From: an uncultured Actinomycetes bacterium
Lineage (GTDB): Bacteria; Actinomycetota; Thermoleophilia; Gaiellales; JAICJC01
NCBI GenBank assembly: GCA_963737445.1
Contig: CAVTSO010000013.1
Location: 24,756-88,755, forward strand
DNA length: 64,000 bases
Reading direction: 5' to 3'
Shown: positions 18,764 to 54,645 of the stretch, one piece after another
How the letters are laid out: each line of letters opens with the position of its first letter
Numbering within the stretch: the stretch's first letter is position 1
Made by a program: the position numbers and the translations under genes
The notes under the pieces: model-generated
Databases searched by the model: none
What the model saw: only the letters and a program-made list of their open reading frames with translations
Told to the model about the DNA's origin: nothing

Positions 18764-18804
18764 GCGGCTCGCAGGATACGCCAGCCTGGGATCGCCGCGG
18801 ATGG

Positions 18805-18990
18805 TCAGGCCGCGGGGACGGAGCCCGACGCGGCGCGGGCCAGCATCGCTTGGAGCTGGTCCCAGGCGGCCTCTTCGACCGCGGAGTACTCCTCCGGGCC
18901 GGCATGTCGGATCGTGTCGAGGTATCGCTGCCAGGCCGCCTCGGGAGCGACCGGGAAATACCTCAGCGTGTCGAGTGTCTTCTGGTTCAT
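18805..18990 (-). CDS. small hypothetical protein (61 aa)
   Basis: The ATG at 18990 is preceded by GGAGG at proper spacing. It lies between the two tRNA genes. Confidence 0.45.
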   Translation of the reverse strand: MNQKTLDTLRYFPVAPEAAWQRYLDTIRHAGPEEYSAVEEAAWDQLQAMLARAASGSVPAA

Positions 18991-19087
18991 GGTTGCCTCC
19001 ACTCGATACTACGGACGCGAGCGGCCGTCGGTTCGGTTCCCGCCGCCGCGGCACGGCCGTCGCCGGCCGGGCCGTACAATCGCCGTG

Positions 19088-19160
19088 GGGCCGTTAGCTC
19101 AGCTGGTAGAGCAGGGGACTTTTAATCCCAAGGTCGCAGGTTCGATCCCTGCACGGCCCA
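19088..19160 (+). tRNA. tRNA-Lys (anticodon UUU)
   Basis: GGGCCGTTAGCTCAGCTGGTAGAGCAGGGGACTTTTAATCCCAAGGTCGCAGGTTCGATCCCTGCACGGCCCA. Canonical arms are present. CCA is not encoded. Confidence 0.9.
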
Positions 19161-29284: not shown

Positions 29285-29572
29285 GTGATGGCGGAGTACC
29301 GGATCACCTACTGGCGCGAGATCCCCTCGATGGTGACCGCCCGCGACGGTGCGGCCACGTCCAAGGCGGCGCTGCCCGGCCGCTTCCAGGAGGCCATCGA
29401 TGAGGCCGCCATGCGCCAGGGCATGGTCGGCTCCGACGCCTACCTGGAGCAGTGGCATCATGGAGAATGGGAGCGGGCGGACGGAACGCCCGACGAGCTG
29501 GTCGCCACTCTGTCGGAGCGGCTCGACAACGACTACGACGCGGCGCGCCTGGAATCGCTGCTGGAGGTGTGA
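29285..29572 (+). CDS. small protein, probably of the 'virulence factor' (PF13769-like) family that accompanies methyltransferase operons
   Basis: YRITYWREIPSMVTARDG...FQEAIDEAAM. Its stop overlaps the next start (TGATG). The family assignment is from memory and is tentative. Confidence 0.5.
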   Translation: MMAEYRITYWREIPSMVTARDGAATSKAALPGRFQEAIDEAAMRQGMVGSDAYLEQWHHGEWERADGTPDELVATLSERLDNDYDAARLESLLEV

Positions 29573-30465
29573 TGGGACAGATCGCGACACTGCTGGGAGA
29601 CACCCGGCCGGCGCTCAGCGACGGCGCCATCGGCACCATGCTGCAGGCGGCCGGTCTCATGCCCGGCGCCTCGCCCGAGATCTGGAACGTCGAGCGCGCC
29701 GATGCCATGCGCGTGATCCACACCGCCTACGCCGATGCCGGGGCGCGTCTGCTCACCACGAACACCTTCGGCGGCACCCGCCCCCGCCTCGCCCTGCACG
29801 GCCACGAGGATCGCGTGCACGAGCTGAACGAGGCCGGAGCCCGCATCGCCCGCGACGTGGCCGACGCCTGCGGTGCGCTGGTGCTCGGCAGCATCGGCCC
29901 TACCGGCGACCTGATGGAGCCGCTGGGGCTGCTCGGCCACAACGACGCCGTCGACCTGTTCGCCGAGCAGGCCGGCGGCCTGGCCGCCGGCGGCGCCCAC
30001 ATCCTGCTGTTCGAGACGTTCAGCGATCTGGGCGAGGTGCGGGCCGGCGTCGAGGGTGCGCGCCGTGCCGCACCCGACGTGCCCGTGGCCGTGACCATGA
30101 CCTTCGACCTGAAGGGCCATACGATGATGGGCGTCAGCCCGTCGCAGGCGCTGGCCGAGATATCCGCGCTCGATGTCGAGCTGATCGGCGGGAACTGCGG
30201 CAGCGGGCCCGACGAGATCGAGGCGGTGATGGTGACCATGTCCGCCGAGCGTCCGGACGGCGTGCTGCTGCTCGCCCAGAGCAACGCCGGCCTGCCGCAG
30301 CTGGTCGGCGACGAGTTCCGCTACGGCGGCACGCCCGAGGTGATGGCCGACTACGCCCTGCGCATGCAGGAGCTGGGTGTCGATGTGATCGGCTCATGCT
30401 GCGGCAGCACGCCGTCGCACACGGCAGCGATGCGCGAGGCGCTCGGCCTGCACGTGCAGACCTAG
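29572..30465 (+). CDS. homocysteine S-methyltransferase domain protein (stand-alone MetH N-terminal-like module)
   Basis: DGAIGTMLQ...TNTFGG...ETFSDL...GGNCGSGP...GSCCGSTP. The Zn-binding Cys, Cys-Cys pattern of the Hcy-binding barrel is present. Confidence 0.8.
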   Translation: MGQIATLLGDTRPALSDGAIGTMLQAAGLMPGASPEIWNVERADAMRVIHTAYADAGARLLTTNTFGGTRPRLALHGHEDRVHELNEAGARIARDVADACGALVLGSIGPTGDLMEPLGLLGHNDAVDLFAEQAGGLAAGGAHILLFETFSDLGEVRAGVEGARRAAPDVPVAVTMTFDLKGHTMMGVSPSQALAEISALDVELIGGNCGSGPDEIEAVMVTMSAERPDGVLLLAQSNAGLPQLVGDEFRYGGTPEVMADYALRMQELGVDVIGSCCGSTPSHTAAMREALGLHVQT

Positions 30466-30481: not shown

Positions 30482-30667
30482 GCCCTCGATCGTGATCGAC
30501 ATGGTCGGGCACGCGTCCGCGGCCGCCTCCACGTCGTCGCGCAGCGCCTCGTCCACGTCCGCCTGATAGCGCAGTAGCTGCGGCGACACCAGCTGGAACA
30601 CCTCCGGGCACTCGATCATGCACTGCCCGTGGTGTTGGCAGGTCTGCTCGTCGACCACCACCCTCAT
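30479..30667 (-). CDS. small ferredoxin (P450-associated type)
   Basis: 62 aa, MRVVVDEQTCQHHGQCMIECPEVF...ADACP. The ATG overlaps the P450 stop (ATGA). Confidence 0.75.
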   Translation of the reverse strand: MRVVVDEQTCQHHGQCMIECPEVFQLVSPQLLRYQADVDEALRDDVEAAADACPTMSITIEG

Positions 30668-31881
30668 CCCACGACCTCCCGGTCGAACGCGATCGGCAGC
30701 TCCACCGGCCCCGTCAGCCCGCTCACCGGCCGCACCACCGGCTCCGCGGTGTAGCGCGGGTTCGGCATCCGGCGCGCGATCAGCGGCAGCGCCTCGCGCA
30801 TGTCGATCCGCGCCAGCCAGTGCCCGATGCAGTGGTGCGCGCCACCGCCGAACCCGAAGTGCGGCGGCCGCTCGGCCGTGATGTCGAACCGCCCGCCCTC
30901 GCCCACCGCCAGCGGGTCGGTGTTGGCGGGGTACGACAGCAGGTGCAGCGTCGTGCCCTCCGGCAGCGCCAGCCCGCCGAACTCCATGTCCTCCGTGGTG
31001 CGACGCGTCGCCCACATCACCGTCGGGTTCCAGCGGATCAGCTCCTCGACCGCGTTCGGCGCCAGCTCCGGCCGCTCGGCCAGAAGCGCGCACTGGTCGG
31101 GGTGCTCGACGAACAGCTGCATCGCCAGCCCCAGCTGGTTCTTGGTCGTGTCCATCCCCCCGAACACGATCAGCGACACCATCGCCAGCAGTTCGATGTC
31201 CGACAGCGACCCCTCCTCGGCGTCGTGCGCCTGCACCAAACTCGAGACCACGTCGTCGCGCGGCCGCACCCGCCGGTCGGCGATCAGCTGCTCCGACACC
31301 GCGTACAGGTTCTGCAGCGCATCCTCGATTCGTCCCTGGTCTTCGCGGATCGTGACGCCGAACGACAGCCCCAGATCGGTCGACCATCGCGACAGGTCGT
31401 GCCAGCGCGCCTCGTCCATGCCGATCAGCTTGCACAGCACCCGCGCCGCGTAGGGCTCAGCGAACTGCGAGACGAACTCGCAGCCGCCCTCGGCCGCGTA
31501 CGCGTCGATCAGCTCGTCGGCCAGCGCCCGGAACTCCGGGCTCATCCGCTCGATCAGCGTCCGCGAGAAGGCCGGGTTGGCCAGCTTGCGCAGCCGCCGG
31601 TGGTCGTCGCCCTCCTTGCTGAGCATGATCTCGGCCCACCACTCCGATAGCAGCCCGTCTTCGATGCCGTTCTGGGCCGGCCAGGCGAAGCTGCCCTGCC
31701 GCAGCCGCCGGTCCTTCAGAAGCGCGCTCACCTCGTCGTAGCGGAGCACGGCCAGGCCGAAGTTGGTGCGCGCCCACCAGCTCTGCTCGCGCGCCGCCGC
31801 CACGGCCGCGGACGAGGCGGAGAAGAAGGGATCCGAGATGTCGAACGACGGGACGTCGGCGGTGTCGATCGAGAGCGTCAT
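30664..31881 (-). CDS. cytochrome P450
   Basis: Haem-thiolate loop FGFGGGAHHCIGHWLA, an EELIRW (ExxR) motif and an I-helix-like FGGMDTT. Confidence 0.9.
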   Translation of the reverse strand: MTLSIDTADVPSFDISDPFFSASSAAVAAAREQSWWARTNFGLAVLRYDEVSALLKDRRLRQGSFAWPAQNGIEDGLLSEWWAEIMLSKEGDDHRRLRKLANPAFSRTLIERMSPEFRALADELIDAYAAEGGCEFVSQFAEPYAARVLCKLIGMDEARWHDLSRWSTDLGLSFGVTIREDQGRIEDALQNLYAVSEQLIADRRVRPRDDVVSSLVQAHDAEEGSLSDIELLAMVSLIVFGGMDTTKNQLGLAMQLFVEHPDQCALLAERPELAPNAVEELIRWNPTVMWATRRTTEDMEFGGLALPEGTTLHLLSYPANTDPLAVGEGGRFDITAERPPHFGFGGGAHHCIGHWLARIDMREALPLIARRMPNPRYTAEPVVRPVSGLTGPVELPIAFDREVVG

Positions 31882-31897: not shown

Positions 31898-33337
31898 TCA
31901 GTCGCCGAGCTCTTTCCGGCGCCGGGTGACGAAGTCGGTAAGCTCCTGGCGCAGCTCCGGGTCGATCGCGGGCGGCTCGTACTGCTCCAGCCGCTCGCGC
32001 CAGATCTCGCCGGCCCGCTCCGTCGCGTCCCGCTCGCCCAGCCGCTTCCAGCGCTCGAAGTTCTCTGTCGACGACAGCAGCGGCCGGTAGAAGCAGTCGC
32101 GGAACCGCTCCAGCGTGTGCGCCGCGCCCAGGAAGTGCCCGCCCGGGCCCACCTCCTCGTGCGCCCCGAATGCGAGCGAGGCCTCGTCCACCTCGAGCGG
32201 GGTGAACTCGACCTTCAGCATCCGCAGCACCTCGATGTCGACGATGAACTTCTCGTAGCACGAGACCAGGCCGGACTCCAGCCAGCCGGCCGAGTGCATG
32301 ACCCAGTTGGTGCCGGCCAGGAAGGTCGGGATCATGGTCATGCAGGCCTCGTAGGCCGACTGCGCGTCCACGGTCTGGCTGGACGTGAAGCCGCCGCCGG
32401 ACCGCCACGGCAGGCCGAAGTGGCGGGCGATCTGGCCGGTGCAGAACAGGCCTGTCGCCGACTCCGGGGTGCCGAAGCTGGGCGACCCCGACTGCATGTC
32501 GGTGTTCGAGAGGAACGACCCGAAGATCACCGGCGCGCCCGGCCGCAGCAGCTGCGCCAGCGCGATCCCCGCCAGCGCCTCGGCCATCTGCTGGACGAGC
32601 GTCGCCGGGATCGTTACCGGCGACATCGCGCCCATCAGCAGGAACGGCGTGATCACGACCGGCTGGCCGGCGCGCACGTACTCGAACATGGCCGCCAGCA
32701 TGCGGTCGTCGTAGCGCAGCGGCGAGTTGACGTTGATCAGCCCGATCACGCCCGGCGTGCGCTCGATCGACTCGCGTCCGCCGAGCAGCATCTCGGTCAT
32801 GCGCACCGAGTCGGCCGCGTTGGGCCCGGAGGTGACGGAGCCCATGTAGGGCTTGTCGGTCAGCGTCTGCAGCGCGAACACCATGTCCAGGTGGCGGGAG
32901 TCGAGCGGCCGGTCGTTGGGCTCGCAGATGGTGCCGCCGGCCGAGTCGAGCTCGTCGAACGACTGGGACAGCATGGTCAGCCGCTCGAAGTCCTGCATCG
33001 TGGCGTCGCGGCGGATGTCGCCCTCGCGCACGAACGGCGGCCCGTAGACCGACGCGAACGCCATGTGATCGCCGCCGATGTGGATGTTGTGCTCGGGGTT
33101 GCGGGCCTGCACGTCGAACTCGTGCGGCGCCTTCGCCACCTGTTCGAGCACGAAGTCGGGGTCGAGGAAGACCTTATCGCCGTCGGTCTTCTGGCCGGCC
33201 TTGGCGAACACCTCGACCGCCTCCGGCAGGATGAACTCGACGCCGATCTCCGAGACGATGCGCCGCCAGCCCCCGTCCAGGGTGGCGATCGCCTGCTCTG
33301 ACAGAATCTCGTAGCGCGGCATCCGGTTGACGAACAT
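31898..33337 (-). CDS. MttB-superfamily methyltransferase, non-pyrrolysine type (paralog 2)
   Basis: Full-length MttB-like sequence (..NVNSPLRYDDRMLAAMFEYVRAGQPVVITPFLLMGAMSPVT..FGTPES..) with no in-frame stop. I chose the ATG at 33337, which follows GGGAGAGGG. Confidence 0.85.
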   Translation of the reverse strand: MFVNRMPRYEILSEQAIATLDGGWRRIVSEIGVEFILPEAVEVFAKAGQKTDGDKVFLDPDFVLEQVAKAPHEFDVQARNPEHNIHIGGDHMAFASVYGPPFVREGDIRRDATMQDFERLTMLSQSFDELDSAGGTICEPNDRPLDSRHLDMVFALQTLTDKPYMGSVTSGPNAADSVRMTEMLLGGRESIERTPGVIGLINVNSPLRYDDRMLAAMFEYVRAGQPVVITPFLLMGAMSPVTIPATLVQQMAEALAGIALAQLLRPGAPVIFGSFLSNTDMQSGSPSFGTPESATGLFCTGQIARHFGLPWRSGGGFTSSQTVDAQSAYEACMTMIPTFLAGTNWVMHSAGWLESGLVSCYEKFIVDIEVLRMLKVEFTPLEVDEASLAFGAHEEVGPGGHFLGAAHTLERFRDCFYRPLLSSTENFERWKRLGERDATERAGEIWRERLEQYEPPAIDPELRQELTDFVTRRRKELGD

Positions 33338-33362
33338 TCGCCCTCTCCCTAAGATCTTGGTA

Positions 33363-33382
33363 TGTGGAACAATCGTTCCACA
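33363..33382. promoter_or_regulatory. palindrome TGTGGAAC-aatc-GTTCCACA in the 45-bp divergent region between MttB2 and the IclR gene (candidate IclR operator)
   Basis: Perfect 8-bp arms, read directly. It abuts or overlaps the IclR ATG (33382) and lies 26-45 bp upstream of the MttB2 ATG. Confidence 0.5.
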
Positions 33383-34164
33383 TGATGAGTCGAAAAGCAA
33401 TGACCGGAACCCAGGCGATAGATCGTGCCGCCCAGCTGCTCGTCCTCGTCGTCGAGAACGAGTCGTCGAGCAGCGTCGGCGAGCTGGCCGAGGCCGCCGG
33501 ACTCCCCAAGAGCACCGTGTCGCGCGCCGTGTCGGCGCTCGAGCGGCAGGGCCTGGTGCAGCGGAGCAGCGCCCGCGGCAGCATCCGCCCGGGGCCGGTG
33601 CTGCTGGGCCTGGCCCGGCGGGGCGTCGGCGAGGAGGACATCGCCGAGCTGTGCCGCGAGGCGCTCGACAACCTGGCCGACGCCACCGGCGAGACCATCG
33701 ACCTGGCGGTCGCCGTGCCGGGCGGCTCCGAGCAGTACATCGCCCAGGTCGACAGCCGCCACATCCTGGGCACCACCAACTGGGTGGGACGGCGCCTGCC
33801 CCACCACTGCACCGCGGTCGGCAAGGTGCTGGTCGCGTTCGGCGCGGCGGGCCTCCAGCGGGGCGCGCTGGAGCGGCTCACCCCCGACACCATCACCGAT
33901 CGCGACGCGCTGTCGGCAGAGCTGGATACGGTGCGGGTATGCGGATATGCGACCGCCGTGGGCGAGCTGGAGCCGGGCCTGGTGGCCGTTGCGGCGCCGG
34001 TGCTTGATGCCGATGGCCGGGCCGTGGCTGCGATCAGCATCTCGGGGCCGCAGTTCCGGATACCGAGCGATCGGCTGGACGGGTTTGGCAAACTCCTGAC
34101 GAAGGAGACGGAAACGCTTTCGGCGCGCCTGGGATTCCGGCCGGCCGGGGAGGGAGCAGCATGA
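33382..34164 (+). CDS. IclR family transcriptional regulator
   Basis: N-terminal HTH (VGELAEAAGLPKSTVSRAVSALERQGLV) and a C-terminal IclR effector domain (..GELEPGLVAVAAPVLDADGRAVAAISISGP). Confidence 0.85.
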   Translation: MMSRKAMTGTQAIDRAAQLLVLVVENESSSSVGELAEAAGLPKSTVSRAVSALERQGLVQRSSARGSIRPGPVLLGLARRGVGEEDIAELCREALDNLADATGETIDLAVAVPGGSEQYIAQVDSRHILGTTNWVGRRLPHHCTAVGKVLVAFGAAGLQRGALERLTPDTITDRDALSAELDTVRVCGYATAVGELEPGLVAVAAPVLDADGRAVAAISISGPQFRIPSDRLDGFGKLLTKETETLSARLGFRPAGEGAA

Positions 34165-34829
34165 CCACCGACGAGATCCTGCAAGGGCTGTTCGACAACA
34201 CGCTGATCGGAAACGCGCCGGCCGTCAAGGACCTCACCAACGAGGGGCTGGCCATGGGCATGGATCCCGAGACGCTGCTCTATGACGCCCTGATCCCGTC
34301 GCTGGAGGAGGTGGGCGCCCGCTTCGAGCGCGGCGACTTCTTCGTCCCGGAGATGCTGATTGCCGCGCGGGCAATGCAGGGCGCCCTGGACATCCTGCGC
34401 CCATTGCTGGCCGAGACCGGCGCCAAGCCGATCGGCACGTTCGTGATGGGCACCGTCAAGGGCGACGTGCACGACATCGGCAAGAACCTCGTCAATATCA
34501 TGCTCGAGGGCGCCGGCTTCACCGTATACGACCTGGGCGTGAACGTGGCGCCCGAGAAGTTCGTGGAGCAGGTGCAGGAGCACGAGCCCGACATCGTCGG
34601 CTTCTCGGCCTTCCTGACAACAACCATGCCGATGTTCAAGGCCAACATCAACGCGCTCGAGAAGTCGGGCCTGCGCGACCGCGTGATCGTGATGGTGGGC
34701 GGCGCGCCGGTGACCCAGGAGTACGCCGACGCGGTCGGCGCCGACGGCTACGCCGCCGACGCGTCCACCGCGGTGCGCCTCGCCAAGACCCTGATCGAGA
34801 ACCGCCGATCGGCGGCGACGCCGGCATGA
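34161..34829 (+). CDS. cobalamin (corrinoid)-binding protein, cap plus Rossmann B12 domain
   Basis: B12 lower-ligand motif GDVHDIGKN plus ..SAFLTTTM.. and ..VGGAP.. The ATG overlaps the IclR stop (ATGA). Confidence 0.9.
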   Translation: MTTDEILQGLFDNTLIGNAPAVKDLTNEGLAMGMDPETLLYDALIPSLEEVGARFERGDFFVPEMLIAARAMQGALDILRPLLAETGAKPIGTFVMGTVKGDVHDIGKNLVNIMLEGAGFTVYDLGVNVAPEKFVEQVQEHEPDIVGFSAFLTTTMPMFKANINALEKSGLRDRVIVMVGGAPVTQEYADAVGADGYAADASTAVRLAKTLIENRRSAATPA

Positions 34830-35707
34830 CCCAGGCCGTCTCCGAACGGTTGCGGTCGCTGGCCGCCACGGCCAGCATCGAGGTGACGCCGCGCCACGTG
34901 GCCGCCGTGACCGAGCTCGACGGCGTGTTGCCCGCCGGGACATCGGTCTACATCACAGCGCTTCCGGGAGCCGACCCATGCGACCTGGTGACGGCCGCCG
35001 AGACCATCCGCGCCGCCGGCCACGTGCCGGTGCCGCACCTGACGGCGCGCGCTATCGCCGGCGACGAGGCGCTGGATGCGCTGCTCTCGCAACTCCGCGA
35101 GCGCGCCGCGGTCGACGACGTGCTCGTGATCGCGGGCGGAGGGGCGACGGTCGCCGGCGACTACTACAGCTCTATGGACGTGCTGCGGTCGGGCCTGCTG
35201 GAGCGACACGGCATCTTTCGCGCCGGCGTCGCCGGGCACCCCGAGGGCAGCCCCGACATCTCACCCGAGGCGATCCTCGAGGCCCTCGCCGAGAAGAACG
35301 CCTTCGCCGCCGCATCGGCGATCGAGCTGCGCATCGTCAGCCAGTTCGCGCTGGCGCCCGAGCCGTACGTGACCTGGGAGCGCGGGCTGCGTGAGGCGGG
35401 AAACCGGCTGCCGGTGGTGGCAGGCATCCCCGGCGTGACCTCGCCCCCCTCGCTGCTCAAGTTCGCGCTGGCCTGTGGCATCGGCCCCTCCGTGGAGGTG
35501 CTCCGCAAGCAGTCGGGCGGGTTGCTGAAGCTGGCAACGACCCGGCTGTGGCGGCCCGACCAGCTGGCCGAGGACATCGCGCAATCGACTGTCCACGATC
35601 CCGGCAGCCTGATCGAGGGCCTGCATCTGTTCCCCTTCGGCGGGGTCGAGCGATCGGCCCGATGGCTGGCCGAGATGCGCACCGCGCCGGCTGCGGTGCC
35701 GGGATGA
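34826..35707 (+). CDS. methylenetetrahydrofolate reductase (MetF)-like protein
   Basis: MTHFR-like barrel segments (SIEVTPR...VPHLTAR...VLVIAGG...GVAGHPEG...IVSQFA...IPGV). The ATG overlaps the upstream stop (ATGA). Confidence 0.7.
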   Translation: MTQAVSERLRSLAATASIEVTPRHVAAVTELDGVLPAGTSVYITALPGADPCDLVTAAETIRAAGHVPVPHLTARAIAGDEALDALLSQLRERAAVDDVLVIAGGGATVAGDYYSSMDVLRSGLLERHGIFRAGVAGHPEGSPDISPEAILEALAEKNAFAAASAIELRIVSQFALAPEPYVTWERGLREAGNRLPVVAGIPGVTSPPSLLKFALACGIGPSVEVLRKQSGGLLKLATTRLWRPDQLAEDIAQSTVHDPGSLIEGLHLFPFGGVERSARWLAEMRTAPAAVPG

Positions 35708-35725
35708 GAGCTGAAAGGATGCTGA

Positions 35726-36589
35726 ATGCAGACCACCATTGAGTCGCGGTCGCGCACGGTCGTGATCGGGGACGGCGCGCCGTTCTGCGTGATCGGCGAG
35801 CGCATCAACCCCACCGGCCGCAAGGCCTTCCAGGCGCAGCTGCAGGCCGGCGACCTGTCGCAGCTCGAGATCGACGTGGCCGAGCAGGTGGCCGGCGGCG
35901 CCGACGTGCTCGACGTCAACGTGGGCGATCCGCTGGCCGACGAGATCGAGCTGATGCGGGCTGCCGTGCCGATGGTGCAGGGCCTGACCGACCTGCCGCT
36001 GTGCATCGACTCCTCCATCATCGAGGCGCTCGAGGCCGGCCTCGGGGCGTACGAGGGCAAGGCGCTCGTCAACTCGGTCACCGGTGAGGACGAGCGGCTG
36101 AACCTGATCCTGCCGATCGTGGCCCGCCACGGCGCGGCGGTGATCGGCCTCGCCAACGACGACGAGATCCCGATGGAGCCGGAGCGCCGGCTGGAGGTGG
36201 CCCGCAAGATCGTCTCGGCCGCCGGCGACCACGGCATCCCGCCGCAGGACGTCGTGATCGACCCGCTGGCGATGCCGGTCGGCGCCGAGCCGCGCGCGGT
36301 CACGCTGTTCCTGGAGACGGTGCGGCTGATCCGCGACGACCTGGGCGTGAACATGACCTGCGGCGCCAGCAATACCTCGTTCGGGCTGCCCGGCCGCCAC
36401 ACCCTGGGCGCCGCCTTCCTGGCGGTCTCACAGAGCCACGGGTTGACCAGCGCCATCATGGACGCGCGCGCTCGCGAGTGCGTCGAGTCGGTGCGAGCCA
36501 CCGACTTCCTGCTCGGCCAGGACGAGTGGGGCGCGCGCTGGATCGCCGCGCACCGGGCCAAGCTGGCGGCGCAGGCCGCGACAAGCTAG
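35726..36589 (+). CDS. pterin-binding methyltransferase (methyl-corrinoid:tetrahydrofolate methyltransferase; MetH pterin domain/AcsE-like)
   Basis: VIGERINPTGRK...DVLDVNVG...LCIDSS...ALVNSV...GASNTSFGLP are typical DHPS-like pterin barrel motifs. Confidence 0.8.
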   Translation: MQTTIESRSRTVVIGDGAPFCVIGERINPTGRKAFQAQLQAGDLSQLEIDVAEQVAGGADVLDVNVGDPLADEIELMRAAVPMVQGLTDLPLCIDSSIIEALEAGLGAYEGKALVNSVTGEDERLNLILPIVARHGAAVIGLANDDEIPMEPERRLEVARKIVSAAGDHGIPPQDVVIDPLAMPVGAEPRAVTLFLETVRLIRDDLGVNMTCGASNTSFGLPGRHTLGAAFLAVSQSHGLTSAIMDARARECVESVRATDFLLGQDEWGARWIAAHRAKLAAQAATS

Positions 36590-36591
36590 CG

Positions 36592-38451
36592 GTGTCGGTG
36601 GACGCCGAGACGATCGAGCCAGGAACCGGACGCGTCCGGCTGACGTTCGCGCCCGACGGCGGCGAGGTGCGCGTCCCGGCCGGCACCACCGTGTTCGACG
36701 GGGCCAGCTGGAACGGCATCGCCATCGACTCGACCTGCGGCGGCCACGGCACCTGCAAGAAGTGCAAGGTGCGGATCACCGACGGCGAGGTGCCGGTCGA
36801 CACGCTGGATCCGCGCGCGTTCAGCCCCGACGAGCTGCGCGGCGGCTGGCGGCTGGCCTGCCGCGCGATCGCCACCCACGACCTCGCCGTCGAGGTGCCG
36901 CCGCTGCAGACCCGCCCCAAGGCGGCGCTGGTCGGCGTCGGCCGCCACGTGATCCTGCGCCCGTCCGTGCAGAAACGCTTCCTGGAGCTGGAGGAGCCGT
37001 CGCTCGAGGACCAAGCGGCCGACATGGAGCGCGTGGTGGATGCGGTCGAGGACTTCGAGCTGCGGGTTGAGCTGGGCGCCGCGCGCGGCATCGGCCGCAC
37101 CCTGCGGTCATCCAACTTCAAGGTCACCGCCGTCATCTGCGACGACGTGCTGATCGACGTCGAGCCCGGTGACACCACCGAGCGGCGCCACGCGATCGCC
37201 TTCGACCTGGGCACGACCACGGTGGTGGCGACGCTGCTCGACCTCGCCACGGGCCAGCCGCTGGCCGTGCGCTCGATGCTGAACCGCCAGCAGCCGTTCG
37301 GCGCGGACGTGATCTCGCGCGTCTCGGCCACGATGATGGACCCGGACGCGCTGGAGATGCTCCAGCAGCGGGCGCATGAGACGATGAACGGCCTCGCCGG
37401 CGAGGTCTGCGAGGAGGCCGGCCTGTCCCCGACGGAGGTGTACGAGATCGTGGTCTGCGGCAACGTCACGATGATGCAGCTGGCGCTGGGCATCGACCCC
37501 GAGCCGCTGGGCATGTCACCCTTCATCATCACCGCCCGGCGGCTGCCGCCGGCGGTTGCCTCCGACTTCGGCGTGCGCGTGCACCCGCGCGCGCCGGCCG
37601 CCGTGTTCCCGGCGCTGGGCGCCTACGTGGGCGGAGACATCGTCGCCGGCATGCTCGCCACCGGCCTCACCCGCGACCGCCGCGTGCGCCTGTTCATCGA
37701 CGTCGGCACCAACTCCGAGATCGCGCTCGGCTCGAGCGAGCGGGTGGTCGCAACTGCAGCGCCGGCCGGGCCCGCATTCGAGGCCGCCCAGATCCGCTGC
37801 GGCATGCGTGCCGCCGAGGGCGCGATCGAGGGCGTCGCGATCAGCGGCGAGGAGATGTCCCTTGAGGTGATCGGCGACGCCACGCCGGTCGGCATGTGCG
37901 GCTCCGGCCTGGTGGATGCCGTCGCCCAGCTGGTGGCGGCCGGCCTGCTCGACCACTCCGGCCGCTTCATCCCCGACGCCGCCGCCGCCGAGCTGCACCC
38001 GCAGCTGAGCACGCGTCTGGTGAAGGTGGGCGAGGAGCGGGTGTTCGTGCTGGCATGGCGCGGAGACGACCCCGCGAACTCGATCTACCTGTCGCAGCGC
38101 GACGTGCGCGAGCTGCAGTTCGCCAAGGCCTCGATCGCGACCGGCTGGCGGATCCTGATCAAGGAGCTCGGCCTCGGCGAGGACGAGATCACCCAGGTGC
38201 TGCTGGCGGGCAGCTTCGGCAGCTACCTGTCGCCTGCCAGCGCCGTGCGCATCGGCCTGGTGCCGAAGCTGGCGCTGCCGCGCATCATCTCGGCCGGGAA
38301 CGTGGCCGGTGAGGGCGCCAAGATGGCGGCGCTGTCGCTGCGGGAGCGGGCGGCGGCCGACGCGATTCTGGATGAGGTCGAGTACGTGGAGCTGTCCGGG
38401 CGGGCAGACTTCAACGACATGTTCATGGACGAGCTGGCGTTCCCGGGATGA
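36592..38451 (+). CDS. corrinoid reductive activase (RACo/RamA-like): 2Fe-2S ferredoxin domain plus ASKHA ATPase domain
   Basis: N-terminal [12 protein letters not shown] plant-type ferredoxin motif. ASKHA-like [11 protein letters not shown]...[12 protein letters not shown]...MCGSGL follows. The GTG start is 2 nt after the upstream stop. Confidence 0.8.
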
Positions 38452-39026
38452 CGACGGCCGTGATCGCATGCGGCGCGCTCGCCTTGCACGTGAACGCCAT
38501 CGCCGAGCGGCGCGGCTGGGAGATCGATGTGCACCCGCTGCCGCCGGAGCTGCACAACCGCCCGGAGCAGATCGCACCTGCCGTCGGCCGTCTGGTGGAC
38601 GAGCTGGCCGGCCGCTACCAGCGCGTGGCGGTCGCCTACGCCGACTGCGGCAGCTACGGAGCGCTCGACCACGAGCTCCGTCGCCGCGGCATCGAGCGGC
38701 TGGAGGGCGACCACTGCTACGACGTGTTCGGGAGGCCGGAGGTGGCCGAGGCGCTGGCCGAGCAGCCCGGCACCTACTTCCTGACCGATTTCCTGGCGCG
38801 CACCTTCGACCGCACGGTCTGGCGGTCGCTGGGCCTCGACCGGCATCCCGAGCTGCGCGACGACTACTTCCACTCCTACACCCGGGTGATCTGGCTGGCG
38901 CAGCGGCGAACGCCCGACCTGCTGGAGCTGGCCGAGCGGGCGGCCGCCATGCTGGGGCTGCCGCTGGAGGTGCGCGACGTGGGCGAGTCGGGGCTGGAGG
39001 CACAGCTGGAGCGCCTCGCGGCATGA
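38448..39026 (+). CDS. DUF1638 domain protein
   Basis: [11 protein letters not shown]...[11 protein letters not shown]...GDHCYDVF...YFLTDFLAR. Start and stop both overlap the neighbours (ATGA on both sides). Confidence 0.75.
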
Positions 39027-40153
39027 GCGACGCGACCTCGATGCGCGCGGCACTGCTGCCCGCTCCGGGCACGCCGCTGCGGGTGGTCGAGCTCGAGCTG
39101 GCCGCGCCCGGCCCCGGTGAGGTGCTGGTGCGTCTGCGCTCCAGCGGCGTCTGCCAGGACGACCTGAACCTGCTCGACGGCACGGTCGACGTGCCCGCCC
39201 CGGTCGTGCCCGGCCACGAGGGAGCCGGCGTCGTCGAGGCTCTGGGCGAGGGCGTGCAGGGGCTTGCGCCCGGCGATCACGTGGCGCTGTCCTGGGCCCC
39301 CTACTGCGGCAGGTGCGAGGAGTGCCTGCGCGATCTGCCGCACCTGTGCGGCACGGCCTGGCCGCTGATGCTGGGCGGCGGTCTGCTCGACGGCACCACC
39401 CGCCTCCGCTTCGGCGGGGCGGAGGTGCACCACTACTGCTTCCTGTCCACCTTCGCGGAGCGTGCGGTCGTGCCCGCCCGGTCGTGCGTCCAGATCCCCG
39501 CCGACGTGCCGTTCGAGGTGGCGGCGCTGCTCGGCTGTGCGGTGACGAGCGGCGTCGGCGCCGTCTGGCGCACCGCCGGCGTGCGGCCGGGCGAGCGGGT
39601 GGCGGTGATCGGTACCGGCGGCACCGGGCTCTCGGCTGTGATGGGCGCGGTCGCCTCGGGTGCGTCGCAGGTGATCGCCGTCGACCGCCGGCACGAGCGC
39701 CTCGAGCGCGCCCAGCAGCTCGGGGCCAGCGCCGTCGTGCAGTGGCAGGGTGAGCCGGAGCGGGTCGCCGAGGCGGTGGTGTCGGCCAGCGGCGGCGGCG
39801 TCGACTACGCCATCGACTGCACCGGACGGCCCGGTCCGATGCGGGCCGCGTTCCTGTCCACGCGCAAGCGGGGAGCCGCCGTGATGGCCGGCATCCCGCG
39901 CGCCGAGGCCGAGCTGACGGTGCCCGCGCGGTCGATCCCGCGGATGGAGCGACGGGTGCTGGGATCGATCTACGGGTCGGCCCGGCCCGACCGCGACTTC
40001 CCGCTGATCCTCGACGCCTACCGGCGCGGACGGCTGCCGCTCGACCGGCTGATCTCACACCGGCTGACCCTGGACGAAGTCGGCGCCGGCATCGACGCGG
40101 TGCGCTCGGGCGATGCCACGCGGGTGGTGCTCGACCTGGGAGGCGACGCGTGA
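39023..40153 (+). CDS. zinc-dependent alcohol dehydrogenase family (class III / formaldehyde dehydrogenase-like)
   Basis: GVCQDDL...[16 protein letters not shown]...CGRCEECL (structural Zn Cys cluster)...[12 protein letters not shown] (NAD fold). Confidence 0.8.
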
Positions 40154-40593
40154 GCGAGCCCGCGACCGGCGGCTGCCTGTGCGGCGCAGTGCGTTACGAG
40201 GTGCGGGGGCCGCTGCGCGACATCCTGATCTGCCACTGCGTCGAATGCCGGCGCTGGCACGGCAACGTTGCGGCCAGCACCGCGGCTGCCCGCGGCGATC
40301 TGGTCCTGACCGGGCAGCGCGGGCTGCGCTGGATCGCCGGCCCCGAGAGCGACGCGCACGCACGCCGGGGCTTCTGTGGCGAGTGTGGTTCCAGCCTGTT
40401 CTGGGACGCGCCTGGGCGTGACTACGTCGCGATCGCGGCCGGGTCGCTGGACGGCGAGACCGGGCTGCGCATCGCCGGCCACTGGTTCACCTCCCAGAAA
40501 GGCGACTGGTACGAGCTGCCCGACGATGGCCTGCCACACCACGAGCGCTCGGCCGCGGTCGAGGGCGGCTCGCCGAGTGGTAAAGTGATTTGA
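40150..40593 (+). CDS. GFA (glutathione-dependent formaldehyde-activating enzyme/CENP-V) family protein
   Basis: GGCLCGAVRYEV...CHCVECRRWHG...FCGECGSSLFW. The GTG overlaps the ADH stop (GTGA). Confidence 0.8.
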   Translation: MSEPATGGCLCGAVRYEVRGPLRDILICHCVECRRWHGNVAASTAAARGDLVLTGQRGLRWIAGPESDAHARRGFCGECGSSLFWDAPGRDYVAIAAGSLDGETGLRIAGHWFTSQKGDWYELPDDGLPHHERSAAVEGGSPSGKVI

Positions 40594-40599
40594 CGATAT

Positions 40600-41076
40600 A
40601 TGGAACAGGAGACGTCACAAGGGCGCTTCGCCGATGGCCTTGCAGAGCGCGAGCCGCTGGGCCCGCCGCTGATCGGGGCGCTGCTGCGCATGCCGGTCGA
40701 TGCCGTGCGGCGGCAGATGATCGAGCGGCTGCACGAGCACGGCTTCGCTGACATCGATCCGGCCCACCTGATCGTGCTGCGCTATCCCGGCCCGCAGGGT
40801 GAGCGCCCGTCCGATCTGGCCGCGCAGCTGGGCATGAGCAAGCAGGCGCTCAACTACCAGCTGGGGCAGCTCGAGCGGCGCGGCTACCTCGAGCGGCGTC
40901 CCGATCCTGAGGACATGCGTTCCCGGCGGATCGTGCTGACGCGGCGCGGCGTTGCCGCGGCCCACGTGATCCGTGACGCCGTGGCCGAGCTGGAGACCCT
41001 GTGGGAGCGGGAGCTGGGGGAGAAGCGCTACGCGCAGCTGCGCGGCCTGCTGGTCGAGCTGAATCGCGTGATCTAG
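40600..41076 (+). CDS. MarR family transcriptional regulator
   Basis: PSDLAAQLGMSKQALNYQLGQLERRGYLERRPDPEDMRSRRIVLTRRG. Confidence 0.85.
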   Translation: MEQETSQGRFADGLAEREPLGPPLIGALLRMPVDAVRRQMIERLHEHGFADIDPAHLIVLRYPGPQGERPSDLAAQLGMSKQALNYQLGQLERRGYLERRPDPEDMRSRRIVLTRRGVAAAHVIRDAVAELETLWERELGEKRYAQLRGLLVELNRVI

Positions 41077-41078: not shown

Positions 41079-41264
41079 GAGATGGTTGATCGGTTGTTCG
41101 CGAGCCTGGCCGCTGCGAACGGCTTGAAGTCGGAGGAGGCTGGGGTAGCTACGGCTGCGAACCGTCGTCTCCGTCCGCGATCTGCGTGATCGCAGATCGC
41201 TCATGACCGGCGCAAGGCGATGCCTTGCGCCTTGGACACCACGGAGATACCGATCAACCATCTC
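41079..41264. mobile_element. MITE-like 186-bp element, copy A: perfect 15-bp terminal inverted repeats and two internal 10-bp-stem hairpins
   Basis: The TIRs are GAGATGGTTGATCGG (41079-41093) and CCGATCAACCATCTC (41250-41264). The hairpins are GCGATCTGCG-tgat-CGCAGATCGC (41177-41200) and GGCGCAAGGC-gat-GCCTTGCGCC (41209-31). It carries no ORF. Confidence 0.6.
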
Positions 41265-43200
41265 GGTCGATCGACTCGGCCAGCAGTGTGGCCACGTCCG
41301 CCACCCGCAGCGTGCTGCCGCTGGTGCGGACGCCGTCGTCGAGCATCACGGTGCAGAACGGGCAGGCCACCGCCAGCGTCCCGGCGCCGGTCTCATCGGC
41401 CTGCCGCACCCGCTCCTCGTTGATGGCGCTGCCGCGCTCCTCCATCCACATGTGCGCGCCGCCGGCGCCGCAGCAGAACGTGCGCTTGCCGCTGCGCTCC
41501 ATCTCGACCGGCGTGCCCACCGCCGCCACCAGCTGCCGCGGATCCGCCGTCACGTCGTTGTGGCGCGCGAGGTAGCAGGAGTCGTGGTAGGTGATCTGGG
41601 TGTCCCCCGCCTTCGGCTCGATCCGGCCGTCGCGGACCAGCTCGGCCAGCAGCTCGGTGTGGTGCATCACCTCGTAGCGGCCGCCGAAGTCCGGGTACTC
41701 GTTGGCCAGCGTGTTGAAGCAGTGCGGGCAGCTGGCCACGATCTTCGTCACCCCTGAGCCGTTCAGCGTCTCGACGTTCTGCTCCGCGAAGGCCTGGAAC
41801 ACGTACTCGTTTCCCATCCGCCGGGCCGGGTCGCCGGTGCACGACTCGCGCGGGCCCAGGATCGCGAAGTCGACCCCGGCCGCCTGCAAGAGCTTTGCCG
41901 TCGACACCGCCGTCTGCCGGGCGCGCTCGTCGAACGAGGCGGCGCAGCCGACCCAGTAGAGCACCTCGGGCGCCGGGTCGCCCGGCTCGAGCACCGTCAC
42001 GCCCAGCCCCTGCGTCCAGTCGCCGCGCTCCTGCTGGGCCTTGCCCCAGGGGTTGGACGATCGCTCGACGTCCCGCAGCATCGGCTCGGCCTCCGCCGGG
42101 AACCGCGCCTCGGCCATCACCAGGTGGCGGCGCAGGTCGACGATGTGGTCGATGTGCTCGATCGAGACCGGGCACTCGTGGACGCAGGCGCCGCACGTGA
42201 CGCAGTCCCAGACCACGTCGTCGGTGACCGCGTTTGGCACCAGCGGCGGCGGATCGGCTCCCTCGGCACCGGAGAGCAGCTTCGGGCCCTGGTCGAGCAG
42301 GTGATCGCGCAGTCCCATGATCAGCAGCTTGGGCGACAGCTCCTTGCCGGTCGCATAGGCCGGGCAGACGTCCTGGCAGCGACCGCACTCGGTGCAGGTT
42401 GCGGTGTCCACCATCTGCTTCCAGGTCATGTCGGTGAGCGTGCCGGAGCCGAGCCGGATCTCGTCCTCCGGCACCTCCGGGTCGTCGAACACGAGCGGCT
42501 CGAGACGGCCGCGTGCGCGCGTTCGCCCGAAGAACACATTGACCACGGCGGTAATGATGTGCAGGTGCTTCGAGTAGGGCAGGTACGCCAGGAAGCTCAG
42601 GATCAGCAGCACGTGCGTCCACACGAACACGCGCTCGAGCACCTTCGTGCCATCGCCGCCGCCGAACAGGTTGGAGAGCGCGTTTGCGACCGGAGACCAC
42701 GACGCCGGCCACTCGTTCAGCCCCAGCGCGATCCGCGTGGCGTGCCACAGGAGCAGGGTGGTGACGATGCCCGCGATCAGGGCCAGGATGAAGTCGGCCT
42801 CGCCCATGTGGCTGCCCTCGAACCGCGCCGGCCGCTGCACCTTGCGGATGAAGAACGCCGCGCACACGCTCAGCAGCACCAGCAGCGCGAACAGGTCGAC
42901 CAGGAACGCGAACCAGCCCTGGTGGCCGAGCCAGGGCAACGTCGCGTCGCGATCGACGGCCGCGATCATCGCCATGATGATGGTCGGGAACAGCACGATG
43001 AATCCCCAGAAGATCAGCGCGTGCATCACCCCCGGGCCCAGCCGCTGCAGCAGCTTGCGCTGGCCGATCGCGACCACCGCCTCCTGGCGCAGGCGCTGCG
43101 GCACATCGTCGAACCTGGGCGCGGGCCTGCCGAGGCGCATGATCCGGACGAGCAGCCGGGCGCGACGGGCGAAGATGCCGCCGGCCACCGCCAGCGCCAC
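41254..43200 (-). CDS. membrane-anchored Fe-S oxidoreductase (EtfD/DgcB-like; heterodisulfide-reductase-related with CCG domains)
   Basis: N-terminal TM helices, two ferredoxin motifs (CTECGRCQDVCP, CVTCGACVHECP) and two CCG-type Cys-rich domains (..WVGCAAS.., ..TFCCGAGG..). The start is uncertain; I took GTG 43200. The tracked ORF's extension to 43500 overlaps etfA. Confidence 0.8.
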   Translation of the reverse strand: MALAVAGGIFARRARLLVRIMRLGRPAPRFDDVPQRLRQEAVVAIGQRKLLQRLGPGVMHALIFWGFIVLFPTIIMAMIAAVDRDATLPWLGHQGWFAFLVDLFALLVLLSVCAAFFIRKVQRPARFEGSHMGEADFILALIAGIVTTLLLWHATRIALGLNEWPASWSPVANALSNLFGGGDGTKVLERVFVWTHVLLILSFLAYLPYSKHLHIITAVVNVFFGRTRARGRLEPLVFDDPEVPEDEIRLGSGTLTDMTWKQMVDTATCTECGRCQDVCPAYATGKELSPKLLIMGLRDHLLDQGPKLLSGAEGADPPPLVPNAVTDDVVWDCVTCGACVHECPVSIEHIDHIVDLRRHLVMAEARFPAEAEPMLRDVERSSNPWGKAQQERGDWTQGLGVTVLEPGDPAPEVLYWVGCAASFDERARQTAVSTAKLLQAAGVDFAILGPRESCTGDPARRMGNEYVFQAFAEQNVETLNGSGVTKIVASCPHCFNTLANEYPDFGGRYEVMHHTELLAELVRDGRIEPKAGDTQITYHDSCYLARHNDVTADPRQLVAAVGTPVEMERSGKRTFCCGAGGAHMWMEERGSAINEERVRQADETGAGTLAVACPFCTVMLDDGVRTSGSTLRVADVATLLAESIDRDG

Positions 43201-43226
43201 CAGCAGCGCGATCAGGGCGACGGGCT

Positions 43227-44195
43227 CTATCCGGCGCCCGCCTTGCGCAGTTCGGCCGTGATCGCCGGGATCACCTCGTGCAGGTCGCCGATCACGGCGT
43301 AGTCGGCGTTGGCGATGATCGGCGCCTCCGGATCGACGTTGACCGCGATGATCCGCTTGGCGCCCTTGCAGCCGGCCATGTGCTGGGTGGCGCCGCTGAT
43401 GCCGCAGGCCAGGTACACCTCCGGCGCGATCTTGGTGCCGGTCTGACCGACCTGGTCGGTGTGCGACCGCCAGCCGGCGATAGTGACGGCCCGCGAGCAC
43501 CCGACGGCTCCGCCCAGCAGCGCCGCCAGCTCCTCGGCCGGTGCGAAGCCCTCCGGAGAGCCGGCGCCGCGCCCGCAGCTGACCACGAACTTGGCGTCCG
43601 CCAGGTTGACCCCGCCCTCGCTGCTCTGCTGCACGGTCTCGACCACCCGCACCACCAGGTCGGCTTCGCCCAGCGACGGCGAGAAGCGCTCGACGGCCGC
43701 CGGCGCACCGCCCACCTCGGCCGCCTCGACCGTGTGCGGCGCCACCGTCAGCAGCTTGACGGGGCCGTGCAGGCGCGCGTCCTCGAGCAGGCTGCCGCCC
43801 CAGCGGATGCGGGTCACGGTCAACGGGTCGCCCGCCTCTGCGGCGATGCAGTTCGCGGCCAGCGGCAGGTCGCCGATCGCCGCCGCGTGCGCCAGCACCT
43901 CGTTTCCGCGCTCGCTGCCGGCGGCCGCCACGGCCGACGGGGACAGCCGCTCGATCAGCTCGCCGATGCAGCGTGCCAATGCCACGGGCGCATGGGTGGC
44001 GAGCACCTCGTGGTCGGCGATGTGCGCGGTCGCCACCCCGTGGGCGCCCAGCGCGGCGGCGGCGTGCTCGGCGCCGGGACCGGCCAGCAGCGCGTGCAGC
44101 GGTGCGCCGCCGGCGATCTCACGGGTCAGTGCGATCGCCTGCAACGAGGCGTCGTCGGGCCGGCCGTCCTGATGCTCGACGTAGACCAGCGTCAT
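43227..44195 (-). CDS. etfA: electron transfer flavoprotein alpha subunit
   Basis: C-terminal FAD-binding signature ..VVSCGRGAG...GCSRAV...DQVGQTGTKIAPEVYLACGISGATQHMAG... The ATG overlaps the etfB stop (ATGA). Confidence 0.9.
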   Translation of the reverse strand: MTLVYVEHQDGRPDDASLQAIALTREIAGGAPLHALLAGPGAEHAAAALGAHGVATAHIADHEVLATHAPVALARCIGELIERLSPSAVAAAGSERGNEVLAHAAAIGDLPLAANCIAAEAGDPLTVTRIRWGGSLLEDARLHGPVKLLTVAPHTVEAAEVGGAPAAVERFSPSLGEADLVVRVVETVQQSSEGGVNLADAKFVVSCGRGAGSPEGFAPAEELAALLGGAVGCSRAVTIAGWRSHTDQVGQTGTKIAPEVYLACGISGATQHMAGCKGAKRIIAVNVDPEAPIIANADYAVIGDLHEVIPAITAELRKAGAG

Positions 44196-44956
44196 GCCAC
44201 CAGCCCCGCACGGCGCAGCACCTCGACGACCGCCGGCGCAGCTTCGGGCCCGTGGCCCAGGATCTCCGCCTGCTTGCCCTGCCCGGGTGGCAGCCGCAGC
44301 CGCAGCTTCTCGACGCCGGGCTCGCGGCCCGCCGGAGCGATCGTGGCCAGGGGCTTGCGCTTGGCCCGCAGCCGGCCGGGCACCGACGGATAGCGGGGCA
44401 GGTTGAGGCCCTCCTTGACGGTGACCACCGCCGGCAGCGGCACGTCGTAGACGTCGCGGCCGGAGGCCGTCTCCTGCTCGCAGCGGGCGCGGCCGTCCTG
44501 CACCGTGATGCCCTTGACGCCGGTCACGCAGGGCTGCCCCAGGGCGTGGGCGACGCGGATGCCGATCTGGTAGTTGCCGGAGTCGGCCGACTCGTTGCCG
44601 AAGAAGATCAGGTCGAACTCGACGCCGGCGGCCCGCTCGGCCTCGATCGCGGCGACGATCGCCGCGGCCGTGGCCTGGCCATCGAACTCGTCGGCCGTCT
44701 CGAGCAGGCTCGCGCGGTCGATGCCGAGCGCCATCGCGTCGCGGAGCTGCTCCTCGGCCTCGGACGGGCCCAGCGCCAGCACCACGGACTCGCCGCCGTT
44801 CGCCTCGATCAGCCGAACCGCCTCCTCGACGCCGCACTCCTCATGAGGGCTGATGGTGAAGCCGAGGTGGCGCGTCTGGATCGATTGCTCGTCGTCGGTC
44901 AGCACGATCGTGCCGCCGGTCATCGGCACCCGCTTGGCGCAGACGAGGATGTTCAC
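44192..44956 (-). CDS. etfB: electron transfer flavoprotein beta subunit
   Basis: VNILVCAKRVP...ISPHEECGVEEAVRL...DLIFFGNESADSGNYQIG...LNLPRYPS. The GTG overlaps the upstream stop (GTGA). Confidence 0.9.
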   Translation of the reverse strand: MNILVCAKRVPMTGGTIVLTDDEQSIQTRHLGFTISPHEECGVEEAVRLIEANGGESVVLALGPSEAEEQLRDAMALGIDRASLLETADEFDGQATAAAIVAAIEAERAAGVEFDLIFFGNESADSGNYQIGIRVAHALGQPCVTGVKGITVQDGRARCEQETASGRDVYDVPLPAVVTVKEGLNLPRYPSVPGRLRAKRKPLATIAPAGREPGVEKLRLRLPPGQGKQAEILGHGPEAAPAVVEVLRRAGLVA

Positions 44957-53051: not shown

Positions 53052-53182
53052 AGTCAGGATTGATCATTGCACCCGGCGATCACAGGCGCACGAAGTGGAT
53101 CAATCCCGGTCATGCGATCCCCTACCGCCTTCGATACCGTCAGCCTCCATAGGCACAAGCGATACAGACCATCGGAGGTCAC

Positions 53183-54577: not shown

Positions 54578-54645
54578 GGCAGGCCGTGGCCGGGGGGTGC
54601 GTCGGGCACCCCCCGGCCCTTGGCCATGCGGCGTAGGCTTCCATC

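Follow-up and report, generated by a model that had tools for sequence, protein, structure and literature searches.

A probable Gaiellales counterpart of the aerobic cobalamin-dependent MtgBCD-type demethylation system, encoded around an IclR-led operon

The order Gaiellales (Thermoleophilia, Actinomycetota) is abundant in soil and almost uncultured. The metagenome-assembled genome (MAG) GCA_963737445.1 of an uncultured member harbors an eight-gene operon at positions 33363–40593 of a 64,000-nt stretch of contig CAVTSO010000013.1 (24,756–88,755, forward strand), hereafter the window, to which coordinates refer unless another locus is named. The operon combines an IclR-family regulator with the proteins of corrinoid-dependent methyl transfer, and the initial annotation of the sequence took it for an aerobic or facultative variant of a demethylation system known from anaerobes. 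The locus thus raises the question of whether an unprecedented variant is encountered here or a member of a known system, and which methylated compound it serves. The region is probably the Gaiellales counterpart of the aerobic cobalamin-dependent MtgBCD-type demethylation system. It is regarded as a member of that system and not as an unprecedented aerobic variant because a published precedent exists and operons of cultured Proteobacteria match it; new here is a phylum-level member with lineage-specific regulation and accessories, the kind of system being already known.

Conserved core and control region of the operon

Genes were called from an open reading frame (ORF) listing and from GC content at third codon positions (GC3), and domains were assigned by Pfam/NCBIfam scans. 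All eight domain assignments made initially, from IclR to GFA, were upheld by the profile searches, and GC3 values of 0.86–0.97 backed the reading frames of all eight genes. The first cistron on the + strand, which carries the whole operon, encodes the IclR-family regulator (33400–34164, alternative starts 33364 and 33382; IclR_C 120 bits and HTH_IclR), followed by an MtgC-like corrinoid (cobalamin-binding) protein (34161–34829), a homologue of type-4 (S6MTHFR-like) methylenetetrahydrofolate reductase (MTHFR; 34826–35707; PF02219 at only 24 bits, PDB 7XG9 at E 1.3e-44) and a pterin-binding methyl-corrinoid:tetrahydrofolate (THF) methyltransferase resembling MtgD/MtgA (MT2; 35726–36589; Pterin_bind 89 bits). 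Next come a RACo/RamA-like reductive activase with an N-terminal 2Fe-2S ferredoxin domain and an ASKHA ATPase (36592–38451), a DUF1638 protein (38448–39026; Pfam 86 bits), a Zn-dependent medium-chain alcohol dehydrogenase (ADH; 39023–40153; domain scans) and a GFA/CENP-V-family Cys-rich protein (40150–40593; PF04828 70 bits). The seven junctions measure, in order, −4, −4, +18, +2, −4, −4 and −4 nt, confirming the five 4-nt overlaps and the gaps of 2 and 18 nt described initially. The gene for the methyltransferase that would start the reaction (MT1), a non-pyrrolysine MttB-family enzyme here named MttB2, lies outside 33363–40593, on the opposite strand and divergent from IclR (31898–33337, −; PF06253 610 bits).

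Relatives were gathered with the MT2 protein, one genome per species, which yielded 499, and the window proteins were compared by tblastn with the best 80 of these loci, all from Gaiellales/Thermoleophilia MAGs with 76–99% identity to the MT2 query. Presence was scored in those 51 loci whose 10-kb flanks were complete, and overlaps in 71–72 loci. The genes for IclR, the corrinoid protein and DUF1638 were each found in 51/51 loci and RACo in 50/51, and an MttB gene stood in or beside the operon in 50/51, either downstream on the same strand (34 loci) or divergent as in the window (16). The remaining genes were rarer, i.e., the MTHFR-like gene (6/51), ADH (15/51), GFA after ADH (4/51) and, only in the closest relatives, a MarR gene (2/51). 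Therefore, the gene order IclR–corrinoid protein–MT2–RACo–DUF1638, together with MttB, constitutes the conserved unit, and the eight-gene form is an elaboration of one lineage in which the MTHFR-like gene, ADH and GFA are accessories. The gene-neighborhood comparison, run in Gaiellales, thus retained the core but not the eight-gene order as a general arrangement, and the proposal that the system is hard-wired to an MTHFR-like gene and to formaldehyde enzymes does not hold. The 4-nt overlap recurred between IclR and the corrinoid protein (66/71), MT2 and RACo (59/71) and RACo and DUF1638 (66/72); ADH, where present, overlapped DUF1638 by 4 or 8 nt (19/19) and GFA overlapped ADH by 4 nt (7/7). 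As the same overlaps recur in relatives, they represent more than chance. The MTHFR-like gene of a long-read MAG with 99–100% identity to the window is broken into three frames (L012, 9100–9927); it is a pseudogene, or else the break is an indel artefact of the assembly.

The confirmed domains support the initial view of a corrinoid-based three-component methyl transfer with an ATP-dependent activase, feeding methyl-THF. The corrinoid protein is a stand-alone protein with a cap domain (B12-binding_2, PF02607) and a B12-binding domain (PF02310) carrying the DxHxxG motif as GDVHDIGKN, and shares 46–50% identity with those cobalamin-binding proteins of Sinorhizobium meliloti and Terrarubrum that are encoded next to DUF1638. 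Exact-sequence look-ups of the corrinoid protein and of the DUF1638 match P0001 (100% identical) returned nothing. MT2, likewise stand-alone, exceeded the PRK07535 cutoff (295 bits; cutoff 259) and showed 46% identity to the S. meliloti methyl-THF:cobalamin methyltransferase. RACo contains the four Pfam domains Fer2, linker, middle and C_ter, all above cutoff, as well as the Cys motif, and matches PDB 3ZYY over its full length (residues 16–614, E 1.5e-104) and also 4C1N.

A sigma-70-like promoter, TTGACG-17-TAAGAT, was located ahead of the IclR-led operon (33327–33355, +) and is the sole promoter-like site within 30.4–41.4 kb (shuffle mean 0.3). Directly downstream lies a perfect palindrome, ATGTGGAAC-AATC-GTTCCACAT (33362–33383, no strand assigned), within the 45–60 bp divergent MttB/IclR intergenic region. 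Of 71 Gaiellales loci, 61 carry the motif TGGAAC-N4-GTTCCA upstream of IclR, nearly all of them at 27–55 nt from the IclR alignment start; its arms are invariant, only the spacer differs between loci, and the loci devoid of it are mostly contig ends. The window holds a single copy, no second one being found in it. We infer that this motif is the IclR operator. IclR, translated first, would bind the single palindrome and, since the latter overlaps the divergent promoters, would control both units, probably as an autorepressor. Because the palindrome occupies 33362–33383, ATG 33400 (or 33382) is more likely to be the IclR start than GTG 33364. A regulator as first cistron, initially held to be unusual, is typical of this lineage, as IclR took the first position in 51/51 loci; repressors lead their operons in the ArsR, HrcA and CtsR cases as well, and the arrangement is not inherently unusual. 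The conserved operator and the leading position of IclR provide a regulatory circuit ready for testing.

The MarR-family regulator gene (40600–41076, +; domain scan), 6 nt past GFA, is probably a ninth cistron. Two perfect 10-bp-stem hairpins between convergent genes (41177–41231, no strand assigned), the first hairpins downstream of the operon, probably mark the end of the transcription unit; the intrinsic-terminator scan of the + strand found none, and no terminator-like hairpin lies ahead of 41177. A search of the window against Rfam found no riboswitch, only two tRNAs (tRNA-Glu and tRNA-Lys).

Predicted substrate and proposed routes of methyl transfer and corrinoid reactivation

The best PDB match of MttB2 was 4YYC (428 bits), with which it has the motif HxAGWLExG in common, while Desulfitobacterium hafniense MtgB scored 410 bits and the MtgB structures 2QNE and 9YCE were among its structural homologues. 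Glycine betaine is bound in D. hafniense MtgB by Y97, R312, H348 and F356 (JBC 2026, PMC13080624), and the first three of these residues were found to be kept in MttB2 and in 60/60 Gaiellales orthologues. Four genes beyond the operon (41254–47439, −) encode an EtfD/DgcB-like membrane Fe-S protein, the electron transfer flavoprotein (ETF) subunits EtfA and EtfB, and an enzyme of the dimethylglycine/sarcosine dehydrogenase (DMGDH) type with DAO, FAO_M and GCV_T domains. Of the 51 full-flank loci, 30 have a DMGDH-like gene no more than 10 kb from the operon, 29 have ETF genes near it and 26 a DgcB/EtfD-like gene. Owing to the conservation of Y97, R312 and H348 and to these neighbors, glycine betaine is predicted, as a best guess of moderate confidence, to be the substrate of MttB2. 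The DgcB-like CCG/4Fe-4S protein (41254–43200) has 648 amino acids and at least four N-terminal membrane segments; we take it to resemble mycobacterial EtfD, an ETF:quinone oxidoreductase, which would route ETF electrons to quinone. A pyrrolysine (Pyl)-dependent trimethylamine methyltransferase was rejected as an identification, with no in-frame UAG in the uninterrupted MttB ORFs and a TIGR02369 score of 272 against a cutoff of 525. The tRNAs of the window do not include a Pyl tRNA.

According to the route proposed here, the methyl donor would be a quaternary amine bearing a carboxylate, most probably glycine betaine. MttB2 would move one of its N-methyl groups to the Co(I) of the corrinoid protein, from which MT2 would hand it to THF; in the window lineage, the type-4-like MTHFR would then oxidize CH3-THF to CH2-THF. 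The dimethylglycine formed would pass to the neighboring DMGDH-type enzyme, whose electrons would enter the respiratory chain by way of ETF and the EtfD-like protein. The RACo-type activase would spend ATP on re-reducing the Co(II) corrinoid, a repair expected to be frequent in an O2-respiring cell, probably assisted by DUF1638 and possibly by the unlinked PF13769 protein described below. Methyl groups from the same corrinoid protein may also be taken up by a nearby homocysteine methyltransferase for methionine.

The oxidative direction at the MTHFR step is suggested by S6MTHFR, the founder of the "type 4" MTHFRs, in which CH3-THF is oxidized and NADH is not used (PMC11868366). The window protein matches S6MTHFR (7XG9/7XLF; E 1.3e-44) and keeps three type-4 signature segments, namely LPGA (loop β2-α3), LKFALACG (α8) and LFPFGG (β8-α11), as well as Glu21, Gln175, Leu48-Pro49 and Phe215/Cys219 (S6MTHFR numbering). 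In another locus (L079), a distant MTHFR paralogue not belonging to the operon keeps the catalytic Asp.

By genetic evidence, the corrinoid-dependent synthesis of methionine in Phaeobacter inhibens requires DUF1638 (PMC5764234). The window protein is matched by 1404 cluster representatives at E≤1e-3. In the DUF1638 alignment, C67 and C90 are invariant and C8, H36, D66 and D114 nearly so. Its AF2 model (pLDDT 96) consists of two α/β lobes in which the conserved residues follow strand ends, and is compatible with Cys8, Cys67 and Cys90 (with His36) forming a single metal or Fe-S site. By sequence, no solved structure in the PDB matched DUF1638, and Foldseek of the model against the PDB gave no match at E≤1e-3 (best TM-score 0.42, the PrpR N-terminal domain). 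A second small protein, PF13769 ("virulence factor"; ~95 amino acids; 29285–29572, +; domain scan), is encoded upstream of the operon, its gene overlapping that of a Bmt/MtgE-like protein by 4 nt. The PF13769 model (pLDDT 95.6) also gave no fold match in the PDB. A RefSeq gene of Terrarubrum flagellatum (L082, 10589–12871) encodes this domain at the N terminus of RACo, two metagenomic clusters (P0228 and P0265) have it fused to DUF1638, and in S. meliloti and Azoarcus (L081, 14913–15215; L083, 9588–9923) its gene adjoins DUF1638 or the MTHFR genes of the cluster. Because of these fusions and adjacencies, a three-protein corrinoid reactivation unit of RACo, DUF1638 and PF13769 is suggested. Two metagenomic RACo-DUF1638 fusions (P0254 and P0129) were not used, as a 4-nt overlap and one indel could fake them. 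A broader and tentative proposal sees in DUF1638 a metal or Fe-S protein with a Cys3(+His) site which, with PF13769 and RACo, may enable cobalamin methyltransferases to work in bacteria that respire O2, in lineages as far apart as Proteobacteria and Gaiellales; the Gaiellales operon would be betaine-inducible and autoregulated by IclR. If true, B12-dependent betaine demethylation would belong to the core traits of an actinobacterial order that ranks among the most abundant uncultured ones in soil. The linkage of RACo, DUF1638 and PF13769 across phyla, and their fusions, offer a handle on two function-unknown proteins.

Accessory genes, neighborhood and rival explanations

The ADH scored below the cutoff of every formaldehyde-dehydrogenase model compared (TIGR03451, 258 vs 513; TIGR02818, 257 vs 544; TIGR03989, 307 vs 440) and matched class I and class III ADHs equally well. 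The GFA family is broad, and the sole PDB match of the window protein was a generic CENP-V/GFA structure (8AJQ, 47 bits). Hence, the description of both as formaldehyde-handling enzymes is unproven; such a role is plausible because DMGDH-type, trimethylamine dehydrogenase (TMADH)-like and P450 enzymes can release formaldehyde. A cytochrome P450 with the heme Cys motif (30664–31881, −) follows 16 nt downstream of MttB2, an accessory observed there in the closest relatives only. Elsewhere in the window, a second MttB-family paralogue, MttB1 (24653–26098, +; PF06253 555 bits), retains R312 and H348 and carries Gly in place of both Y97 and F356. As Y97 is also absent, MttB1 is predicted probably to take a different betaine or other substrate than MttB2. 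It overlaps by 1 nt the gene for a 698-amino-acid OYE/FMN and FAD/NAD-binding flavoprotein (TMADH/DgcA-like; 26098–28194, +), and the two may form a second demethylation route for another substrate. The Bmt/MtgE-like protein with a homocysteine S-methyltransferase domain (29569–30465, +; PF02574 208 bits) contains the Zn-binding Cys motifs and is 43% identical to S. meliloti Bmt, scoring 294 bits for PRK07534, below the cutoff of 338.

The aerobic setting proposed initially is borne out by the window, which carries caa3 CtaG and SCO1 along with the P450 and a BBE oxidase. The host respires O2, as is evident from CtaG and SCO1, and with these aerobic respiration genes in the window an acetogenic or methanogenic context was rejected.

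Several observations weigh against the assignment proposed above. None of the MttB2 orthologues keeps the fourth betaine-binding residue, F356, its place being taken by Gly or Ala; an invariant Trp lies four residues ahead of this position, and that it stands in for F356 is a guess. The presence of two MttB paralogues leaves the substrate assignment ambiguous, and no betaine transporter gene is present in the window. The corrinoid protein falls under the NCBIfam MtgC cutoffs (NF047996, 208.8 vs 370; NF047995, 172.4 vs 310). In the MTHFR-like protein, the catalytic Asp107 (E. coli Asp120) is replaced by Gly105, the position being Gly or Ser in 10/10 operon-encoded Gaiellales copies, and the gene itself is absent from most related operons. 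The substrate could accordingly be another methylated compound, such as proline betaine, carnitine, γ-butyrobetaine, another betaine or a methylamine, as the absence of F356 and, in MttB1, also of Y97 would allow; many different specificities occur in the MttB superfamily (PMC8604678, PMC12155760, PMC13080624), and the P450 and ADH attached in the window lineage point the same way. However, Y97, R312 and H348 are invariant, the operon is linked to a dimethylglycine/sarcosine-type dehydrogenase and ETF, and glycine betaine transporter genes neighbor the homologous Azoarcus operon, so that a different substrate is considered unlikely.

It is also conceivable that the module works mainly as a split cobalamin-dependent methionine synthase, passing methyl groups from CH3-THF via the corrinoid protein to the MtgE-like enzyme, which would make it biosynthetic rather than catabolic. 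The Bmt/MtgE-like gene and PF13769 lie 3 kb upstream, and a homocysteine-methyltransferase gene occurs within 10 kb in 19/51 full-flank loci, yet this gene stands outside the IclR operon. The near-constant MttB gene (50/51) and the DMGDH/ETF genes (~30/51) are difficult to reconcile with a mainly biosynthetic role, and an IclR-controlled operon with an MTHFR of the CH3-THF-oxidizing type suits catabolism better. A role chiefly in methionine synthesis is hence improbable, although it need not exclude demethylation, since both coexist in Ruegeria. A further possibility concerns the tail of the operon, where ADH, GFA and MarR could be unrelated passengers merely coupled to the corrinoid core in the window lineage, so that the eight genes would not form one functional unit. 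Their scarcity (15/51, 4/51 and 2/51) and the failure of ADH to fit any formaldehyde-dehydrogenase equivalog would agree with this; the invariable overlaps of ADH with DUF1638 (19/19) and of GFA with ADH (7/7), the lack of a terminator-like hairpin before 41177 and the possible formaldehyde release by the neighboring DMGDH-type, TMADH/DgcA-like and P450 enzymes argue for functional association, leaving the passenger explanation somewhat doubtful. Demethylation of a quaternary amine, with glycine betaine as the favored substrate, remains the preferred interpretation of the conserved core.

Other features of the window were recorded as well. A S-adenosylmethionine-dependent methyltransferase gene (28439–29254, −), weakly similar to the model of CpaM, a corrinoid protein-associated methyltransferase (43 bits, cutoff 180), is kept in the closest relatives only. 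The segment 12000–20700 has a GC3 of 0.79–0.84, against at least 0.9 elsewhere, and a positive AT skew, and may be of different origin or expression class; it contains CtaG, SCO1/SenC, DUF7405, an iron-transport-like gene and a phosphoesterase, with divergent tRNA-Glu/tRNA-Lys genes at 18690–19160. Two DUF72 paralogues are present (7132–8040 and 23212–23955), and at 50067–55716 a 994-amino-acid AAA_16 and LuxR-type regulator adjoins the BBE-type FAD oxidase and a sulfite-oxidase-like molybdoenzyme.

Comparison with known systems

The view that such a system is known only from anaerobes is outdated, since the aerobic combination of MtgBCD, MetF2, RamA and DUF1638 has been published (PMC12478193, PMC5764234) and near-identical operons occur in cultured aerobic Proteobacteria. 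In the aerobe Ruegeria pomeroyi, MtgB (pfam06253), MtgC and MtgD carry out the demethylation of glycine betaine (Mausz et al., PNAS 2025, PMC12478193). On N-osmolytes, its MetF2, RamA-like and DUF1638 proteins were more abundant, and its MtgC and MtgD also serve a split methionine synthase with MtgE (PMC12478193). In P. inhibens, a split methionine synthase with a requirement for RamA-like and DUF1638 proteins has been described (Price et al., PLoS Genet 2018, PMC5764234). The S. meliloti locus encodes bmt, an MttB-family gene, a cobalamin-binding protein, DUF1638 and PF13769, then two MTHFR-related genes, the methyl-THF:cobalamin methyltransferase and an ASKHA protein, and the window proteins are 32–46% identical to each part of this cluster. 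The Azoarcus pAZKH operon has the order corrinoid protein–DUF1638–PF13769–MTHFR–MT2–ASKHA, with ABC transporter genes for glycine betaine, ETF and an FAD oxidoreductase on its flanks; Paracoccus methylovorus has the same operon with a divergent MttB.

Within the library that was searched, no paper was found linking Gaiellales to MttB, trimethylamine methyltransferase or an aerobic MtgBCD-type system. The present locus would extend the aerobic B12-dependent glycine betaine pathway, recently recognized in marine and rhizobial Proteobacteria, to soil Gaiellales/Thermoleophilia. That practically all related loci possess the core implies that these organisms require a cobamide and occupy a betaine niche, and thereby provides a cultivation clue for Gaiellales, namely betaine plus B12.

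Similar to the aerobic MtgB/MtgC/MtgD(/MtgE) systems with MetF2, RamA-like protein and DUF1638, the window holds all the protein families in an O2-respiring host, together with a link to dimethylglycine/sarcosine catabolism, a Bmt/MtgE-like gene and PF13769. The window differs in its host, a soil actinobacterium of the Gaiellales, and in the additions specific to its lineage, i.e., ADH, GFA and P450. Its core forms one coupled IclR-led operon with its own operator, unlike those of Azoarcus and Paracoccus, which have GlxA-family regulators nearby, and its DUF1638 follows RACo and not the corrinoid protein as in the proteobacterial clusters. Its MTHFR is type-4-like and devoid of the catalytic Asp, an enzymological oddity, whereas the MTHFR gene of S. 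meliloti, Azoarcus and Paracoccus is preceded by an "MTHFR C-terminal domain" gene.

The anaerobic MtgB/MtgC/MtgA system of D. hafniense with RamA, and MtcB/MtpB/MtyB/MthB of Eubacterium limosum, have the three-component chemistry in common with the window, and MttB2 resembles D. hafniense MtgB in score and in three of the four betaine-binding residues, F356 being the difference. The window is set apart from the anaerobic systems by a corrinoid protein below the MtgC equivalog cutoffs, by its aerobic context and by the presence of DUF1638 and an MTHFR of the CH3-THF-oxidizing type. Aerobic demethylation to CH3-THF coupled to a reverse-working MTHFR is also the principle of the chloromethane (cmu) pathway of Methylobacterium CM4 and of LigM/DesA with S6MTHFR in Sphingobium SYK-6 (PMC11868366), although their methyl donors and MT1 proteins differ from those of the window. 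S6MTHFR itself and the window protein agree in the LPGA and F..C motifs and differ at Asp107, which is Gly or Ser in Gaiellales. Finally, the window RACo has the full-length four-domain architecture of Carboxydothermus hydrogenoformans RACo (3ZYY, 4C1N), but its client is a small methyltransferase corrinoid protein instead of CoFeSP, and RACo of the window type is always followed by DUF1638.

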